From Escherichia coli (GTDB lineage Bacteria; Pseudomonadota; Gammaproteobacteria; Enterobacterales; Enterobacteriaceae), in NCBI RefSeq assembly GCF_046105845.1, contig NZ_CP151004.1: a DNA stretch of 64,000 bases; one strand, 5' to 3'. Shown here piece after piece: positions 56,485-64,000 of the stretch. The notes under the pieces are model-generated. The model was not told the origin of the DNA. It did not search any database and worked only from the letters and a program-made list of their open reading frames with translations. Made by a program: the position numbers and the translations under genes. Each line of letters opens with the position of its first letter. The stretch's first letter is position 1.

Positions 56485-57903
56485 TCAGACGCCGTAACGT
56501 TCGCACCAGCCAAGAATGGCTTTTTCGAAGCAGGCGAATGGTGGATGCACAATGCCCGCGCCAATCATGCCGACGCCCGCATCTTTATGGGCGATGGCGG
56601 TGTTGATCACTGGCAGAATGCCGCTACTGCCCACGCGGGTGATGTCGATTGCCGACGGCACGCCCATAAAACCGAGCAGCGGAATGGTGACGTTGGGGTT
56701 TTCACCGAGAGTGATTTCACGCATCTGGCGGGAGAAATCGATAGCCTCTTCCACCGTGCCGCCCACCAGCGCAACGATTGCAGGCGCGGTCGCCATGGCA
56801 AATCCGCCAATGCCGTAGGTTTCAGTGATGGCGCTGTCGCCGATATCCAGCCCCGAATCTTCCGGCTTATAACCGGCAAACATCGGCCCGATCACCTGCT
56901 GCGCCGGACCGGTAAACCATTGCCCCGGTAATCCGCTGACCCGCAGGCCGAACTCGACGCCGTTACGCGCCATGGTGGTCACCACAGTGCTGTATTCGAT
57001 GCCGTGCGCCGCATCCATCGCCGCTTTACACATCGCCATCCACGTCGGGCCGGAGAAGTAGTCACTGCTGGCGACAAACTCAAACACTTCGCGCTGTTGC
57101 TCGACGGAGTAGCCCGCCTGAATAATCCCCGGCGTCAGCGCCTGAATCAGCAGCGTCGTCCCGGCGTTATTGCGGTTATGGCACTCATCGCCCATATGCA
57201 GCGCCTGCGCCAGCATTAAGCGCAGATCGATCTCGCCGATAATTTTCATCGCATCGCGCAGCATGGGCCCCTGCACATCGCGCATCCAGTTGAGGCGGTC
57301 GATCACGCTCTGGTCGTTAGCGCCCATACGCAAAATCTTCGCCATCTGCTCGCTCATATTGGTGTAAGCGATGTTGCCGTAGGTTTTGTTTTTCACGATG
57401 TGCATAAACATCGAGGCCGAGGTAACACCCGCCATCGATCCCACACAGTCGTGTTCATGGCACGGCGAGAAGGTGATCTCCCCGGAGGCCGCCAGGTCAG
57501 CCGCCTCGTCGAGATCTTTCGCCAGCCCTTCGAACACCAGCGCCCCGGTGACCGCGCCTTTCATTGCGCCGCACATTTTTTCCCAGGTCACTGGCGGCCC
57601 GGCGTGAAGAATGGTTTTCGGCGTCATTCCCGGCACCACGTTAATCGCCTGATCAAAACCAATCAGCACCGGATGCGACTGGATAATGCGCTCCAGCGCC
57701 TGCTGGTTAGCGGCGGCGATTTTGTCCGCCAGCGGGGAATCGGCAATGTTGTCCAGCGCCTGCACCACCTGCATATTGCCCTGCCCCGGCGGCGTCCAGT
57801 CGAGTTGAGTCACTTCTACATGCTGCTTTTTCAGGTCATCGCTAAACATGGCGATGCCGACGTTAATAACGTTCAATGGTTGGCTAAACAGTGACTGGCT
57901 CAT
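56485..57903 (-). CDS. yahG: DUF1116-family protein (YlbE paralog)
   Basis: 472 aa; start overlaps the yahF stop. Confidence 0.88.
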   Translation of the reverse strand: MSQSLFSQPLNVINVGIAMFSDDLKKQHVEVTQLDWTPPGQGNMQVVQALDNIADSPLADKIAAANQQALERIIQSHPVLIGFDQAINVVPGMTPKTILHAGPPVTWEKMCGAMKGAVTGALVFEGLAKDLDEAADLAASGEITFSPCHEHDCVGSMAGVTSASMFMHIVKNKTYGNIAYTNMSEQMAKILRMGANDQSVIDRLNWMRDVQGPMLRDAMKIIGEIDLRLMLAQALHMGDECHNRNNAGTTLLIQALTPGIIQAGYSVEQQREVFEFVASSDYFSGPTWMAMCKAAMDAAHGIEYSTVVTTMARNGVEFGLRVSGLPGQWFTGPAQQVIGPMFAGYKPEDSGLDIGDSAITETYGIGGFAMATAPAIVALVGGTVEEAIDFSRQMREITLGENPNVTIPLLGFMGVPSAIDITRVGSSGILPVINTAIAHKDAGVGMIGAGIVHPPFACFEKAILGWCERYGV

Positions 57904-59450
57904 CAGGCTTCCTCCCCTTTGCAGATAAATTCACGCGCCAGCAATCCGGTATTGGTGCTACTGCTGGCCAGAGTCACTCCGGCATCAAGCAGCATCTGGC
58001 TTTGTTGTTCTAATGATGGCGTATCAAGATCGGTACCCAGCACATAGGCGAGAATGATCAACTCACGTCCTTCGGCAGCGGCGATCGCTTTCGCCTCTTT
58101 GATCGCCTCGATGGTGGAACCGACCGGATCTTCATGCGATCCAAATCCGAGCACAAAATCCATCACGATCACCGCCACTTCTGGATCGCGCGCCTCTTCG
58201 ATCAAGCGGCTGATACGGTTGGTCGGGTCAATCATTGGATGCGGCTTGCCGTTGGTGAAGTCGTCATCGCCAAAGTCGAGGAAGGTGTGTTTGATGCTGC
58301 GGTTGATATCTTGCAGGCGGAATTCAGGATCGGGCTGAATATTGCTGTAGACATCGCCATGTTTTTCCATCACCGCGAACATGGTTTCGTCACACAGCGT
58401 ACCGCCGCAGAACAGGCCACGAATGTATTTCTGCTGCGGTTGCAGGCGAGCGCGCACGTCAGCAATCAACGACTGGTTCAGCGTATGCAGCTCGAGATGT
58501 TCCTGTTTCACGCCGGAGAGCATCACCGCTTTCAATGCCGCCTCTTTACTGCCGCGGGCAAACTGTAGCCCCTGCTCATCCACTGGCGTTTCGCCACGAC
58601 CGAGGAAGCAGACCACCACCGGCTTGCGGCAGGCACGTGCGCGTTCCAGCACTTTGCGGGCCACCGCAGGCGCAGGCGGTTTGGAGATAAGCACAATGAT
58701 TTCAGTTTGCGGATCGTTTTCCAGCATCCCGATGGCGTCGAGCATCATCAGGCCGCCGATTTTCTCGCTCAGGTCGCGCCCGCCGGTGCCAATCAGTTGC
58801 GAAACGCCGCCGCCAAATTCATGGATACGGACGCTCAGCTCCTGGCTGCCGGTGCCAGATGCGCCAACAATACCGATGTTGCCGCGACGCACGGCGTTAC
58901 CAAAGCAGAGCGCCGCGCCGTTGATAATCGCCGTGCCGCAGTCTGGCCCCATCATCAGCAGCCCTTTTTCGTGGGCCAGTTGTTTGAGCGCCAGTTCATC
59001 TTCAACTGAGACGTTATCGGAAAACAGCATCACGTTAAGATCGTTTTGCAGTGCCTGACGCGCTTCGCGAGCAGCAAACAGACCGTTGACCGAAATCACC
59101 GCCAGGTTACTTTCCGGGATATGCTTTTTGGCGCTGGCAATAGTGGCGTAACGCGCCTCGTGCGAGCCGCTTTGCGCTTTGGTGTTGAACAGTTCTTCAA
59201 TCTCCACCAGCAACTGCTCGTTGTCTGCGCCCGCTTTGCCGTTAATGACAATCATCAGGTCGCCGTTTTTCGCCTGCTCCAGCTCCGGCGTCAGCAGCCC
59301 TAAATTCTTCAGTACGCCTTTGTTCATTTCGGTCGCCATCGCCACAAATGCCTGCTCGACGCCGTCGAGTTTATTTGCACGCGTGGAGATAGACATCAGC
59401 GAGACAGAATCAAAATAGGTATTCGGTTTAATGACTATTTTAACTGACAT
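57903..59450 (-). CDS. yahF: FdrA-like protein (succinyl-CoA-synthetase-alpha-like CoA-binding fold)
   Basis: 515 aa; GGAGGG RBS. Confidence 0.88.
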   Translation of the reverse strand: MSVKIVIKPNTYFDSVSLMSISTRANKLDGVEQAFVAMATEMNKGVLKNLGLLTPELEQAKNGDLMIVINGKAGADNEQLLVEIEELFNTKAQSGSHEARYATIASAKKHIPESNLAVISVNGLFAAREARQALQNDLNVMLFSDNVSVEDELALKQLAHEKGLLMMGPDCGTAIINGAALCFGNAVRRGNIGIVGASGTGSQELSVRIHEFGGGVSQLIGTGGRDLSEKIGGLMMLDAIGMLENDPQTEIIVLISKPPAPAVARKVLERARACRKPVVVCFLGRGETPVDEQGLQFARGSKEAALKAVMLSGVKQEHLELHTLNQSLIADVRARLQPQQKYIRGLFCGGTLCDETMFAVMEKHGDVYSNIQPDPEFRLQDINRSIKHTFLDFGDDDFTNGKPHPMIDPTNRISRLIEEARDPEVAVIVMDFVLGFGSHEDPVGSTIEAIKEAKAIAAAEGRELIILAYVLGTDLDTPSLEQQSQMLLDAGVTLASSSTNTGLLAREFICKGEEA

Positions 59451-60303
59451 AATTCCCTCCGTAGGTTTGGCTCAGCGCACAACCATCGGCCATGCCATAC
59501 AGCATGTCGCAGCCGGAACTGGAGCCAATATGTTTAATTTTTTCTATTGCCTGAGTTGCGTTCCCAGGGATGTCATAAATAATGTTATGAATAAAACGAT
59601 GAATATTTTCCCGGCAGCGTTGTTGTAATGCGGCTTCCAGCGTTATGGCACTTAATAACGTGGTATTATTTCTGCCGCGTTGCAGACCGAGATAAAATTC
59701 CTCTTTGTATTTTTCCGCCGGATGTCCGGAAATAAATAAAATAAGCGCCAGACCTGTTAAATAATCGTCGGCTGATGGCGTAAGGCCAATCCCTAAGCCC
59801 ATCATACTGGCGACTGCTGAGGCGATATTTTGTTTATCGTTTACGGCCTGAATAACTGCCCGTCGTTTAATATGTAATTCTTTATTTAACGCCTGATAAA
59901 ACGGATTATCGCCGCAATAATTAAACAGGGTTTCATTTTCCCCCAGGTGCTGATGAATAATGTCATGCCACTGTTGCCAGGCGATAAGGTGAAAATTCAC
60001 AGCGGTCATTTGCAAGGTTGGGGACAGCCAACGCCGACAACGACTCATCTCTATATGAAGATGTTGACCAACCGTAATGCCTTGATCGTCAAACTGAACC
60101 TTATCACCATGCCGGAACAGACCATCAAAGTGAGTGAGTGCCAACCGACAACTGTTTGGCGCATTGTCATACTCTTCACAAAGCAGCGTCAGCAACTGCT
60201 GGCGGGCCGGAAGTGCGATATTTACCGCTCTGGCAAAGACCTGTTCAACCTGTCCTTGCCCCCGCTGTGCCAGAAAATCCGCATCCGCAGTTAGCGCCCA
60301 CAC
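59440..60303 (-). CDS. yahE: Uncharacterised protein YahE (YlbF-like)
   Basis: 287 aa; GTG start; 11-nt overlap with yahF. Confidence 0.8.
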   Translation of the reverse strand: MWALTADADFLAQRGQGQVEQVFARAVNIALPARQQLLTLLCEEYDNAPNSCRLALTHFDGLFRHGDKVQFDDQGITVGQHLHIEMSRCRRWLSPTLQMTAVNFHLIAWQQWHDIIHQHLGENETLFNYCGDNPFYQALNKELHIKRRAVIQAVNDKQNIASAVASMMGLGIGLTPSADDYLTGLALILFISGHPAEKYKEEFYLGLQRGRNNTTLLSAITLEAALQQRCRENIHRFIHNIIYDIPGNATQAIEKIKHIGSSSGCDMLYGMADGCALSQTYGGNYVS

Positions 60304-60342: not shown

Positions 60343-60948
60343 TTATGCACCTGCGGCAATCAGTAACTGTGCAATCTCTTCAAAGCCTCGTTCCCGCGCC
60401 AGTTCCAGCGGCGTTTTGCCATATTTATCCGTCATGTGCGGGCTGGCACCGTGTTCCAGCAATAACTGGACAATCGCCTGCTGTTTAATCCCGCCATCAT
60501 TAAGCACAATTGCTTCCAGTAGCGGCGTCCAGCCAACATGGTTGGTCTGGTTAACGTTAATCTCCGTATGCGCCAAAAGCTCTTTTACAATACTTAAATG
60601 GCCTTTTTCACAGGCAGGCGTCAGGCCGACACCGCCAAAACGGGTGACGCAATTAAGATCAGGTTTAGCCGGTAAAATAATCCGTAACAGGGTTAAATCG
60701 CCGGTCAGGCAGCTAATTAAAAAAGGATTTGAACATATTTGATCTTGCTTATTAATATCCGCTCCGGCATCAATTAATGCCTGAACGCAAGCATATTGCT
60801 GATATAAACTTGCCAGCGTAATTGCCGTTTTCCCCTGACGATCGCAGGTATTAATATCGACACCCAGCGCAAGGCATGTTTTTACTTTATCGATATCACC
60901 CTGTTGCGCAGCCAATAAATAGTCGGCAGGTAGATTTTTTATAGTCAT
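60343..60948 (-). CDS. yahD: Ankyrin-repeat protein
   Basis: 201 aa with repeated ankyrin-like units (e.g. GKTAITLASLYQQYACVQALIDAGADIN, GWTPLLEAIVLNDGGIKQQAIVQLLLEHGASPH). Confidence 0.88.
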   Translation of the reverse strand: MTIKNLPADYLLAAQQGDIDKVKTCLALGVDINTCDRQGKTAITLASLYQQYACVQALIDAGADINKQDQICSNPFLISCLTGDLTLLRIILPAKPDLNCVTRFGGVGLTPACEKGHLSIVKELLAHTEINVNQTNHVGWTPLLEAIVLNDGGIKQQAIVQLLLEHGASPHMTDKYGKTPLELARERGFEEIAQLLIAAGA

Positions 60949-61053
60949 TCACATTCCCCTGGTTTTTGTGGCTGTTTTCGATGAATTGAGAATAGCAACG
61001 ATAATCTGATAAAAGAACCCGCTTAAATTTAATTCGCCGTATTTCGCCTTTTT

Positions 61054-61070
61054 GTTGAATGATGTTCAAC
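61054..61070. promoter_or_regulatory. Perfect palindrome GTTGAA-N5-TTCAAC in the yahD-yahC divergent region
   Basis: Seen directly; candidate regulator site. Confidence 0.3.
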
Positions 61071-61205
61071 AATCTTTTCGCAGTGTGCGGTAGTGCAATA
61101 TTTGTTTCTTTGACCCGATACCCTTTCACTCAATCAGGTTTTATTTCTCTATAGTCTGCACATGTAAGAGTAGCTTTCGTCCATGTCTAACCAGAGGGGA
61201 ACAAG

Positions 61206-61703
61206 ATGAACGGACTCACGGCAACGGGTGTCACCGTCGGTATTTGTGCAGGGCTTTGGCAGTTAGTGTCTTCACATGTCGGGCTCTCTCAGGGATGGGA
61301 ATTATTAGGAACTATTGGCTTCGTCGCCTTTTGCAGTTTTTATGCCGTAGGCGGCGGTAAATCGGGGTTTATCAGAAGCCTGGCGGTTAATTATTCTGGG
61401 ATGGTGTGGGCGTTTTTCGCCGCGCTGGCTGCCGGTTGGCTGGCCTCGGTGAGTGGATTGTCCACGTTCTGGGCGAGCGTGATTATGACTGTACCCTTCT
61501 CGGCGGTGGTGGTCTGGCAAGGACGTTTCGGTTTATTGTCTTTTATTCCCGGAGGCTTTCTCGGCATGACGCTATTTTTTGCCAGCGGGATGAACTGGAC
61601 GGTGACATTACTGGGTTTTCTGGCGGGTAACTGCGTGGGGATAATTTCAGAATATGGCGGACAAAAATTAAGCGAAGCGACGACTAAACGCGACGGGTAT
61701 TAA
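61206..61703 (+). CDS. yahC: Inner-membrane protein YahC
   Basis: 165 aa with four predicted TM helices. Confidence 0.85.
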   Translation: MNGLTATGVTVGICAGLWQLVSSHVGLSQGWELLGTIGFVAFCSFYAVGGGKSGFIRSLAVNYSGMVWAFFAALAAGWLASVSGLSTFWASVIMTVPFSAVVVWQGRFGLLSFIPGGFLGMTLFFASGMNWTVTLLGFLAGNCVGIISEYGGQKLSEATTKRDGY

Positions 61704-61794: not shown

Positions 61795-62727
61795 ATGAAC
61801 TCAATTTTTACCGAAGAGAATCTGTTGGCATTTACTACCGCTGCGCGTTTTGGCAGCTTCAGTAAAGCCGCAGAAGAGTTGGGTTTAACCACTTCCGCCA
61901 TTAGCTACACCATCAAGCGAATGGAAACAGGGCTGGATGTGGTGCTGTTCACTCGCAGTACCCGAAGCATTGAGTTAACGGAGTCCGGGCGTTATTTTTT
62001 CCGCAAAGCTACCGACCTGCTGAATGATTTTCACGCCATCAAACGCAGCATCGATACTATTTCGCAGGGTATAGAAGCACGGGTGCGCATTTGTATTAAC
62101 CAACTGCTTTATACGCCCAAACACACCGCACGCTTATTACAGGTACTGAAAAAGCAGTTTCCAACCTGCCAGATTACCGTGACGACCGAAGTGTATAACG
62201 GCGTCTGGGATGCGATTATTAATAATCAGGCGAATATTGCTATCGGCGCGCCCGACACACTGCTGGACGGCGGCGGCATTGATTACACGGAGATTGGCGC
62301 AATTCGCTGGGCTTTTGCTATCGCCCCGGATCACCCATTAGCCTTTGTGCCGGAGCCGATCGCCGAAAGCCAACTGCGTCTCTATCCTAATATCATGGTG
62401 GAGGACACCGCGCATACGATTAATAAAAAAGTGGGCTGGTTGCTGCATGGGCAGGAGTCGATTCTGGTGCCAGATTTCAACACCAAATGTCAGTGCCAGA
62501 TTTTAGGTGAAGGAATTGGTTTTTTGCCGGATTACATGGTCCGTGAGGCGATGGCGCAATCCCTGCTGGTTACCCGACAAATCCATAATCCGCGCCAGGA
62601 TTCACGCATGTTACTCGCAACTCAGCATTCTGCTACGGGTCAGGTGACGCAGTGGATTAAAAAACAATTTTCGCCAAATGGCATATTAACGGGGATCTAT
62701 CAGGATTTACTGCATCGGGAGAATTAA
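61795..62727 (+). CDS. yahB: LysR-family transcriptional regulator
   Basis: 310 aa; N-terminal HTH (FSKAAEELGLTTSAISYTIKRME). Confidence 0.9.
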   Translation: MNSIFTEENLLAFTTAARFGSFSKAAEELGLTTSAISYTIKRMETGLDVVLFTRSTRSIELTESGRYFFRKATDLLNDFHAIKRSIDTISQGIEARVRICINQLLYTPKHTARLLQVLKKQFPTCQITVTTEVYNGVWDAIINNQANIAIGAPDTLLDGGGIDYTEIGAIRWAFAIAPDHPLAFVPEPIAESQLRLYPNIMVEDTAHTINKKVGWLLHGQESILVPDFNTKCQCQILGEGIGFLPDYMVREAMAQSLLVTRQIHNPRQDSRMLLATQHSATGQVTQWIKKQFSPNGILTGIYQDLLHREN

Positions 62728-62768: not shown

Positions 62769-63857
62769 TCAACCACCTGCTTTCATTACCCATTCAGAGA
62801 TAAATTTATTACCCGGTACTGGCGGAGAGTACAAATAGCCCTGCAAAAAGTGAACGCCTTTGCCGATCATTAAATCCGCCTGCTCCTGGGTTTCTACCCC
62901 TTCCGCCACGATACTCAGACCAGGCTTACGCGCCAGTTCGACAATATTGTCCACAATATGACCGGATATTTCGTCCACGCTCGCCATTTGCACAAATGAC
63001 TTATCGATCTTAATAAAATCGACCGGAAACGCCTGCAGATAACGATAGGTCGCATAACCCGTACCAAAGTCATCCAGCGCAAAGGTAATGTTGTGCTGAT
63101 GAAGGCTGTCAAATATCGCTCTGGCTTCTGGCGTTACCGGAATAGGGTTACGTTCCGTTAGCTCGAGAACCAGTTTGATTTTATCGTTACCTAATTTCTT
63201 AACCAGGTTCAGACACTCTTTTTCAAATCCCGCAGCCAAAAAACAACCCGCCGAGACGTTGATGCCAATATGGAAATTATCCGGCAGCAAATGTTTTACC
63301 GGCATCAGAATATCCGCAGTCTGTTTCATCAACTGGCGAGTCATTATGACGATAAGACCAGATGACTCCGCCAGAGGAATAAACTGATCCGGTGGGATAA
63401 TTCCCGTTTGTGGATGTTCCCAGCGGACAAGCACCTCACAGCCCGTCAGTACCCCAGTCTGCGCGCAGAAAACCGGTTGGATCCACGGTTTAAACTCATG
63501 GTTTTCCAACGCCAGACTGATGGCTTCAGGCGTGACGATATGGTGATAGTGATTATCATTAATATATTTGTGACTATTATTACCCGTGGCGGATATGATC
63601 TCCGGATTGTACTGAAAGAAAATATCCCGCCAGAAAGTAATATCACTCTGAATCCCCAGTTTCTCAAAGAGCTGTTTCTTTTGATGTGAAATGGTCTTTG
63701 CACTGCGATTTCTGTACTGTGATATTTCTGTTACAGACATTCCCTGCATCAGCAGCTTGAGTAGCAGTCGTTCTTTCTCGGATACGCTACCAGGCAATGA
63801 CAAATGAACCGTTGTACCGAACTCTTGCAGAAAAACACGAAAATCACATGAATTCAT
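62769..63857 (-). CDS. pdeL: c-di-GMP phosphodiesterase PdeL (LuxR-type HTH plus EAL domain)
   Basis: 362 aa from ATG 63857 (MNSCDFRVFLQEFGTT...); EAL motif (VLELTERNP). Confidence 0.9.
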   Translation of the reverse strand: MNSCDFRVFLQEFGTTVHLSLPGSVSEKERLLLKLLMQGMSVTEISQYRNRSAKTISHQKKQLFEKLGIQSDITFWRDIFFQYNPEIISATGNNSHKYINDNHYHHIVTPEAISLALENHEFKPWIQPVFCAQTGVLTGCEVLVRWEHPQTGIIPPDQFIPLAESSGLIVIMTRQLMKQTADILMPVKHLLPDNFHIGINVSAGCFLAAGFEKECLNLVKKLGNDKIKLVLELTERNPIPVTPEARAIFDSLHQHNITFALDDFGTGYATYRYLQAFPVDFIKIDKSFVQMASVDEISGHIVDNIVELARKPGLSIVAEGVETQEQADLMIGKGVHFLQGYLYSPPVPGNKFISEWVMKAGG

Positions 63858-64000
63858 GAACACACCTTTTATCTTTTATCGCTGTTCAGTATGAGTGATT
63901 ACCTGTGGATTCCTGAGCACACATAAGGGGTAACCATAAACATCAGCGATGCCATACGCATAACATCCCACATCACTATCAAAAAGATTATCTTTACCTC

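Follow-up and report, generated by a model that had tools for sequence, protein, structure and literature searches.

Comparative analysis of the yahD-yahC control region of Escherichia coli indicates that a palindrome between these divergent genes probably serves the LysR-type regulator YahB as its primary recognition site at an activator-dependent yahD promoter. We assign this reading, which is drawn from sequence comparison, a probability of about 0.62. The kind of system is ordinary, namely a LysR-type operator pair at an activator-dependent promoter, and the new part is its assignment to YahB. YahB is an orphan among the LysR-type regulators of E. coli K-12, with no target, effector or binding site known, and yahDEFG-yahIJ belongs to the uncharacterised 'y-ome'; no description of a YahB site or of yah operon regulation was found in the literature searched. 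A defined operator would provide a handle for effector screens and for the design of reporters for inducing conditions, and it would also offer a test of whether the yah cluster constitutes a second, AllS-like pathway for carbamoyl compounds.

The yah locus and its palindrome

The DNA analysed here (the window, 64,000 nucleotides) is E. coli sequence in the reverse of the K-12 orientation. The proposed target, yahD (60343-60948, minus strand), encodes an ankyrin-repeat protein and is the first gene of the yahDEFG... operon; its neighbours on one side are yahE, within 57903-60303, and yahF (57903-59450, minus strand). Divergent from yahD is yahC (61206-61703, plus strand), which encodes a DUF1097 membrane protein. 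The proposed binder is encoded by yahB (61795-62727, plus strand) and carries HTH_1 and LysR_substrate domains. Beyond it lies pdeL (62769-63863, minus strand), which in E. coli is 1.7 kb from the palindrome. In E. coli yahB is thus downstream of yahC and not divergent from yahD, and yahC intervenes in other enterics too.

By family, YahE matches AllH, YahF matches FdrA/AllF and YahG matches AllG, and YahI is a carbamate-kinase paralogue. The genes yahE, yahF, yahG and yahI (window 57903-60303) are paralogues of ylbF (AllH), fdrA (AllF), ylbE (AllG) and the carbamate kinase gene ybcF of the allantoin region (locus L028, 16681-21333). With YahB being a paralogue of AllS, the yah regulator and enzymes appear to be a duplicated module.

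The palindrome, referred to as site 1, occupies positions 61052-61072, reads TTGTTGAA-TGATG-TTCAACAA and is centred at 61062. An earlier note on this DNA had reported the elements GTTGAA (61054-61059) and TTCAAC (61065-61070) around the spacer TGATG. These are present exactly, but the perfect arms extend over 8 bp rather than 6 bp (TTGTTGAA at 61052-61059 and TTCAACAA at 61065-61072). Its distances of about 140 bp to yahC and about 110 bp to yahD agree with our values of 144 bp to the yahC ATG (61206) and 114 bp to the yahD ATG (60948), both measured from the centre. The core, TGAA-N5-TTCA (61056-61068), is a T-N11-A box in which T61056 and A61068 lie inside the perfect 8-bp arms.

Inverted repeats with 6-bp arms and a 5-bp spacer occurred 14 times in the 64-kb window, for a random expectation of about 16, and two repeats had 8-bp arms with a 5-bp spacer. 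No second copy of the palindrome was found within the window when 3 mismatches were allowed. First-order Markov simulations of the 257-bp intergenic region gave P = 0.07 for a repeat with 6-bp arms and a 5-bp spacer, and P = 0.045 for any repeat with 8-bp arms and a spacer of 0-10. Judged from this single sequence alone, the palindrome is marginally non-random; we take it to be more than a chance occurrence because it is conserved across loci. A 77-codon GTG-initiated open reading frame on the minus strand (window 60896-61129) overlaps the palindrome and the yahD promoter elements and is probably spurious.

The palindrome arms are conserved in enterobacteria

A search for relatives of YahC in species-representative genomes identified 19 loci in Escherichia, Citrobacter, Raoultella, Kluyvera, Klebsiella, Enterobacter and Pseudocitrobacter. 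The order yahF-yahE-yahD with divergent yahC-yahB was found at 18 of the 19 loci, the contig of the remaining one being too short to show gene order, and pdeL was adjacent at only three, all of them Escherichia. Alignment of the yahD-yahC intergenic regions gave the enterobacterial form of the palindrome as ATT[AG]TTGAA-N5-TT[CT]AA[CT]AAT. Across 18 enterobacterial regions the information content was 1.73 bits per position in the arms, 0.83 in the spacer, 0.96-0.99 in the immediate flanks and 1.30 over the region as a whole. Changes in the arms were not compensatory, since all four combinations (G..C, A..C, G..T and A..T) were seen at one position pair in the alignment. Such independent changes are expected of two protein half-sites and not of a base-paired stem.

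The region was present in 5068 of 5426 complete E. coli genomes. A 61-bp query matched 1625 genomes at 99% identity or more and 3438 at 95-99%, so that over this query about one third of E. coli genomes have the window allele. The K-12 MG1655 sequence, TTGTTGAATAATATTCAACAA, is a perfect 21-bp palindrome (NC_000913.3 335156-335176) whose only departures from the window are at two spacer positions, 61061 and 61064 (both A in K-12); outside the palindrome there is one further difference, at 61043. Polymorphisms among the E. coli sequences that we sampled fell in the spacer or flanks and never in the arms. In one swine isolate (L033, NZ_CP016404.1 1069002-1069113) an IS1 element is inserted just left of the palindrome, at about window position 61046. 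With the palindrome cut off in this way from both the second dyad and the yahD promoter (described below), the isolate is a natural mutant in which yahD should be uncoupled from the site.

The proteins of the cluster differed in their degree of conservation. YahB was 91-98% identical among enteric loci, as compared with 55-64% for YahE, 72-81% for YahD and 72-84% for YahC, and is under unusually strong constraint for a local regulator.

The palindrome accompanies yahD in other lineages

Genomic contexts were fetched for YahB homologues of 53-84% identity. Aeromonas, Zophobihabitans, Pragia and a lake metagenome contig (L118) share a dyad upstream of yahD of the form ATTRTTGAA-N5-TTYAAYAAT, and a more degenerate version is found in Herminiimonas. 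The classical LysR arrangement, in which yahB is directly divergent from yahD, is seen in three of these lineages. In Aeromonas cavernicola and Zophobihabitans entericus the two genes are separated without yahC by regions containing ATTGTTGAA-AATAA-TTCAATAAT and ATTATTGAT-TAAGA-TTCAATAAT, respectively, and the third case, L118, has ATTGTTGAA-AACCA-TTCAATAAT. Pragia fontium, which has a reduced set consisting only of yahD, a yahJ-like gene and yahB, carries ATTGTTGAA-TAGTA-TTCAATAAT upstream of yahD, and the betaproteobacterium Herminiimonas contaminans carries the degenerate ATTGTTAAG-AAAAA-TTCAAAAAT upstream of yahD. In Pasteurella testudinis a 23-bp perfect palindrome, ACCTTTGAA-TAAAA-TTCAAAGGT, has the same TTGAA-N5-TTCAA core with different outer arms. 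Neither yah genes nor the palindrome were found near a YahB-like protein of Providencia sneebia (76% identity). A scan of metagenome contigs for ATTGTTGAANNNNNTTCAATAAT returned at least 120 loci, almost all of them AT-rich chance matches, and was uninformative on specificity; L118 was the only contig with yah genes among the matches listed.

Two of these loci had features of their own. The Pasteurella layout differs from the others in that the interval from the palindrome to a TATAGT -10 element contains a perfect CRP site, with another perfect CRP site upstream and the second dyad on the far side. At 319-421 of this locus (L023), two TGAA-N5-TTCA dyads stand between a pair of perfect CRP consensus sites (TGTGATCAGCCTCACA and TGTGATGTTTGTCACA). 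The array is nearly symmetrical, with spacings of about 27, 33 and 27.5 bp, and is located upstream of TATAGT and yahD. In H. contaminans (L155, 1752-2300) the yah cluster is directly downstream of apparent tRNA genes and a segment of about 130 bp is duplicated. The apparent tRNA genes together with the duplication suggest that the Herminiimonas cluster is an acquired island.

Architecture of the predicted yahD promoter

A second, weaker dyad (site 2, 61023-61037; TTAAA-TTTAA-TTCGC) is centred at 61030, 32 bp from site 1 toward yahD, and is conserved at 1.90 bits per position. A dyad at 32-33 bp on the yahD side of the palindrome was present in six lineages (E. coli, Aeromonas, Zophobihabitans, Pragia, L118 and Herminiimonas), reading TTAAAAAGCATTCAC in Aeromonas and TTGAACATCATTCAT in Zophobihabitans. 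Two such dyads in one region occurred in 1.7% of shuffled sequences. Next to site 2, the conserved block AAAAGAACCCGC (61011-61022; 1.81 bits per position) appears to cover the predicted -35 region of yahD and contains no TTGACA-like hexamer. Farther toward the gene is the predicted extended -10 element of the yahD promoter, TGCTATTCT (60989-60997, minus strand; 1.91 bits per position), which corresponds to the block GAGAATAGCAAC (60988-60999) when that block is read on the yahD strand.

The extended -10 pattern TGnTAnnnT was kept in every lineage. Moreover, the centres of the palindrome and of the -10 hexamer were 70.5 bp apart in five lineages (E. coli, Aeromonas, Zophobihabitans, L118 and Herminiimonas) and 71.5 bp apart in Pragia. 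From these elements we infer that yahD transcription would start at about 60982, giving a 34-nt leader and placing the palindrome at about -80 and the second dyad at about -48. A scan for consensus promoters and terminators detected nothing in the yahD-yahC intergenic region or between yahC and yahB, and the proposed promoter elements therefore rest on conservation. The arms are conserved while the spacer is free, the distance to a conserved promoter element is fixed, and the arrangement extends over two proteobacterial classes. These findings support the earlier proposal that the palindrome is a candidate operator for a dimeric regulator.

A further conserved element, site 3 (TGTGCGGTAGTGCAAT, 61084-61099), lies on the yahC side of the palindrome, its centre (61091.5) being 29.5 bp away, and is conserved at 1.68 bits per position; its conserved stretch, at 61084-61097, is TGTGCGGTAGTGCA. 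Enterics, Aeromonas and Zophobihabitans share the motif TGTGCG..(T)GCA at the same 29.5-bp offset, on the side facing away from yahD (window 61084-61099, L020 5756-5771 and L025 8683-8698). Compared with the CRP site TGTGA-N6-TCACA, the E. coli sequence TGTGC-N6-GCAAT has 4 mismatches, and those of other enterics and Aeromonas have 3. As matches with 3 mismatches occurred in 63% of shuffles, assignment of site 3 as a CRP site in E. coli is statistically unsupportable. It probably binds another factor.

YahB is the probable regulator

The earlier note had named YahB or PdeL as the possible regulator. The YahB half of this suggestion is favoured by the co-occurrence of yahB with the palindrome at every locus examined, by the T-N11-A box and by a core geometry shared with PunR. 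No regulator other than YahB accompanies the palindrome across all gene orders and across both Gamma- and Betaproteobacteria. Its recognition helix, TTSAISYTIKRME, is conserved among orthologues. The best NCBIfam models for YahB were AllS and PunR, with both matches under the cut-offs of the models. YahB is 38% identical to AllS (49% in the DNA-binding domain) and 29% identical to PunR (45% in the DNA-binding domain).

PunR (YdhB) provides the nearest precedent for the site. Its operator in the punR-punC intergenic region is a 23-bp palindrome, TsttwTCAAwAwwwTTGaaGGCA, that was first predicted by phylogenetic footprinting and then validated by ChIP-exo, fluorescence polarisation and EMSA, with binding in vitro only when adenine was present (PMC8376909). 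The site proposed here for YahB, a paralogue of PunR, shares with it the same 4-5-4 core geometry (TCAA-N5-TTGA for PunR and TGAA-N5-TTCA for yah) and the position of an activator site upstream of the target promoter. The two differ by one base per half-site (C in PunR and G in yah) and in the outer arms (GGCA and ACAA, respectively), and the YahB site is a predicted one.

In the one genome-wide binding experiment on YahB, a published ChIP-exo of YahB-8myc in glucose M9, no peak fell in the yah region; the three peaks that were called, near ygjD, nlpI and yhcC, were very weak, with a signal/noise of 1.3-2.0 (PMC8464067 Dataset S4). This negative result counts weakly against binding by YahB. 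We gave it low weight because the cluster was silent under those growth conditions and the cells received no effector, because the tag was C-terminal, and because PunR offers a precedent: binding that depends on an effector would explain a negative YahB ChIP result without inducer. RNA-seq from the same study showed next to no expression of the cluster (base means: yahB 76, yahC 5.6 and yahD 13; PMC8464067 supplements).

In the mechanism that we propose, a YahB tetramer would occupy both dyads, at about -80 and about -48. Site 1 would serve as the high-affinity recognition site and site 2 as a second YahB site of the activation type; being three helical turns apart, the dyads would lie on the same face of the DNA. 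The effector-bound tetramer would then activate yahDEFG-yahIJ, the paralogue of the AllS-controlled genes for oxamate carbamoyltransferase and carbamate kinase. YahB may also influence the divergent yahC promoter.

LysR-type regulators are commonly cited as having a recognition site at about -65 and an activation site at about -35. The yah region resembles their operators in that a 13-bp T-N11-A dyad is embedded in a longer palindrome, a weaker second dyad lies nearer to a promoter that has no -35 element, and the site is close to a LysR-type gene. It differs in that the predicted positions of -80 and -48, counted from the predicted start, are 32 bp apart and thus farther upstream and wider than -65/-35, and in that yahC lies between the site and yahB in E. 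coli. The more upstream predicted positions and the lack of a divergent yahB in E. coli are points against the YahB reading, as are the identity of the core to the MetR consensus considered below and the Providencia sneebia locus, where a YahB-like protein occurs away from any yah genes or palindrome.

AllS, which activates the allD operon of the allantoin regulon, is the closest characterised relative of YahB, and the yah enzymes are paralogous to AllH (YlbF), AllF (FdrA), AllG (YlbE) and YbcF. Nevertheless, the allD-fdrA intergenic region differs in that it has no TTGAA-N5-TTCAA; it contains only TTATTTGAA...TTAATAA, with another spacing and beside a good CRP site. When the allD-fdrA and allS-allA intergenic regions were compared with the yah site, no convincing common dyad was found. 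In the K-12 allD-fdrA region (L028, 16549-16594) the good CRP-type site TGTGATATTCATCACC is beside the AT-rich partial dyad TTATTTGAATTCTTTTGTTAATAA, a layout that is loosely yah-like with a different spacing.

Other explanations of the palindrome

Binding by MetR, the LysR-type methionine regulator, is another reading of the E. coli sequence, as the core at 61056-61068 is an exact match to the MetR consensus TGAANNNNNTTCA (quoted in PMC3353975), with all 8 specified bases and their spacing identical. However, this agreement is not kept in most other genera. The consensus is matched in Escherichia, Pseudocitrobacter, Aeromonas, Pragia and Pasteurella, whereas Citrobacter, Kluyvera, Raoultella, Klebsiella and Enterobacter have TTTA instead of TTCA in the right half, thereby replacing the C that defines a MetR site with T. 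Furthermore, conservation of the yah site runs 4-5 bp past the MetR core on both sides to cover 21-23 bp, and the palindrome follows yahB and yahD rather than genes of methionine metabolism. Its neighbours are genes for ankyrin, DUF1097, AllH/AllF/AllG-like and carbamate-kinase-like proteins, and no association with methionine or one-carbon genes was found. YahB itself shares only about 24-26% identity with MetR, and 27% within the DNA-binding domain. The region between metE and metR, which is the classical MetR target, contains no exact match, indicating that the MetR consensus is loose. Taken together, we regard MetR as an improbable owner of the site. PdeL, a protein with a LuxR-type HTH and an EAL domain whose binding would couple the yah cluster to c-di-GMP, is less probable still, to the point that we give it almost no weight. 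Its gene is close by in E. coli, and one preprint describes PdeL as binding DNA in dimeric or tetrameric form, with palindromic boxes as its targets, and as binding the region upstream of pdeL (10.1101/2021.10.01.462762). However, the palindrome is conserved at loci other than the three of 19 at which pdeL is adjacent, and the 874 bp upstream of pdeL, which we examined whole in place of the published boxes because their sequences are given only in a figure, contain neither GTTGAA nor TTCAAC, the best match having 5 mismatches in 16. The PdeL half of the earlier suggestion is unsupported, and nothing that we found supports a link between the yah cluster and c-di-GMP signalling; at the yah locus the evidence argues against one.

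The palindrome could instead be a functional operator for a different transcription factor encoded elsewhere, such as a global regulator, with YahB acting at another conserved block. This is unlikely, though we take it seriously: at least four other conserved blocks are present in the region, the YahB ChIP-exo result was negative, and the perfect CRP site beside the Pasteurella palindrome shows that other factors act there. Yet it is YahB alone that is conserved together with the site across Gamma- and Betaproteobacteria, and the spacing is unlike that of the nearest known AT-rich dyads, which are Cra (TGAA-N4-TTCA), the ARG box (TGAAT-N4-ATTCA) and FNR (TTGAT-N4-ATCAA). The Cra and ArgR sites resemble the yah site in being built from TGAA(T)/(A)TTCA half-sites; in the latter, however, these are arranged as TGAA-N5-TTCA, equivalent to TGAAT-N3-ATTCA, and a spacing change of one base misaligns the half-sites. 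A Cra-type site with the TGAA-N4-TTCA spacing, GCTGAATGGATTCAGT, is found upstream of pdeL. Readings of the NtrC, sigma-54, Fur, IHF, Fis, ArcA and PhoP types were dropped for wrong spacing or orientation, as judged by eye against their consensus sequences. We also considered whether the palindrome arose by chance or forms a DNA or RNA hairpin with no protein partner. The marginal improbability in one sequence (P = 0.045-0.07) and a possible RNA fold of about -7 kcal/mol agree with such an origin, but deep conservation at a fixed distance from a promoter element does not, the arm changes point to half-site recognition over a stem, and scans for Rfam families and terminators gave no Rfam match and no terminator-like feature. 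This explanation is accordingly very improbable. Lastly, YahD might be a protein partner that modulates YahB at the operator and not a catabolic enzyme, forming an ankyrin-LysR feedback loop, possibly with cross-recognition of TGAA-N5-TTCA by MetR. In line with this idea, the yahD-yahB pair persists in Pragia fontium, where the carbamoyltransferase genes are absent, and the palindrome always precedes yahD. We consider such a loop a long shot.

Possible promoter signals in and upstream of yahC

On the yahC side of the intergenic region, TATAGT (61150-61155, plus strand) is the likely -10 element of yahC and is nearly invariant in enterobacterial loci that have this gene. A Reg-Seq preprint reports sigma-factor footprints at the yahC promoter, where the primary pattern is followed by a second one about 100 bp downstream (10.1101/2025.05.13.653802). 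A published YfeC ChIP-exo peak is listed for yahC at 334131-334162, with a signal/noise of 56 and a flag for bound RNAP. If its coordinates follow an older version of the K-12 sequence, this peak would lie about 80-115 bp inside yahC (window about 61288-61319). The YfeC peak, the second Reg-Seq pattern and the RNA-seq base mean of 76 for yahB as against 5.6 for yahC hint at an internal promoter within yahC that drives yahB.
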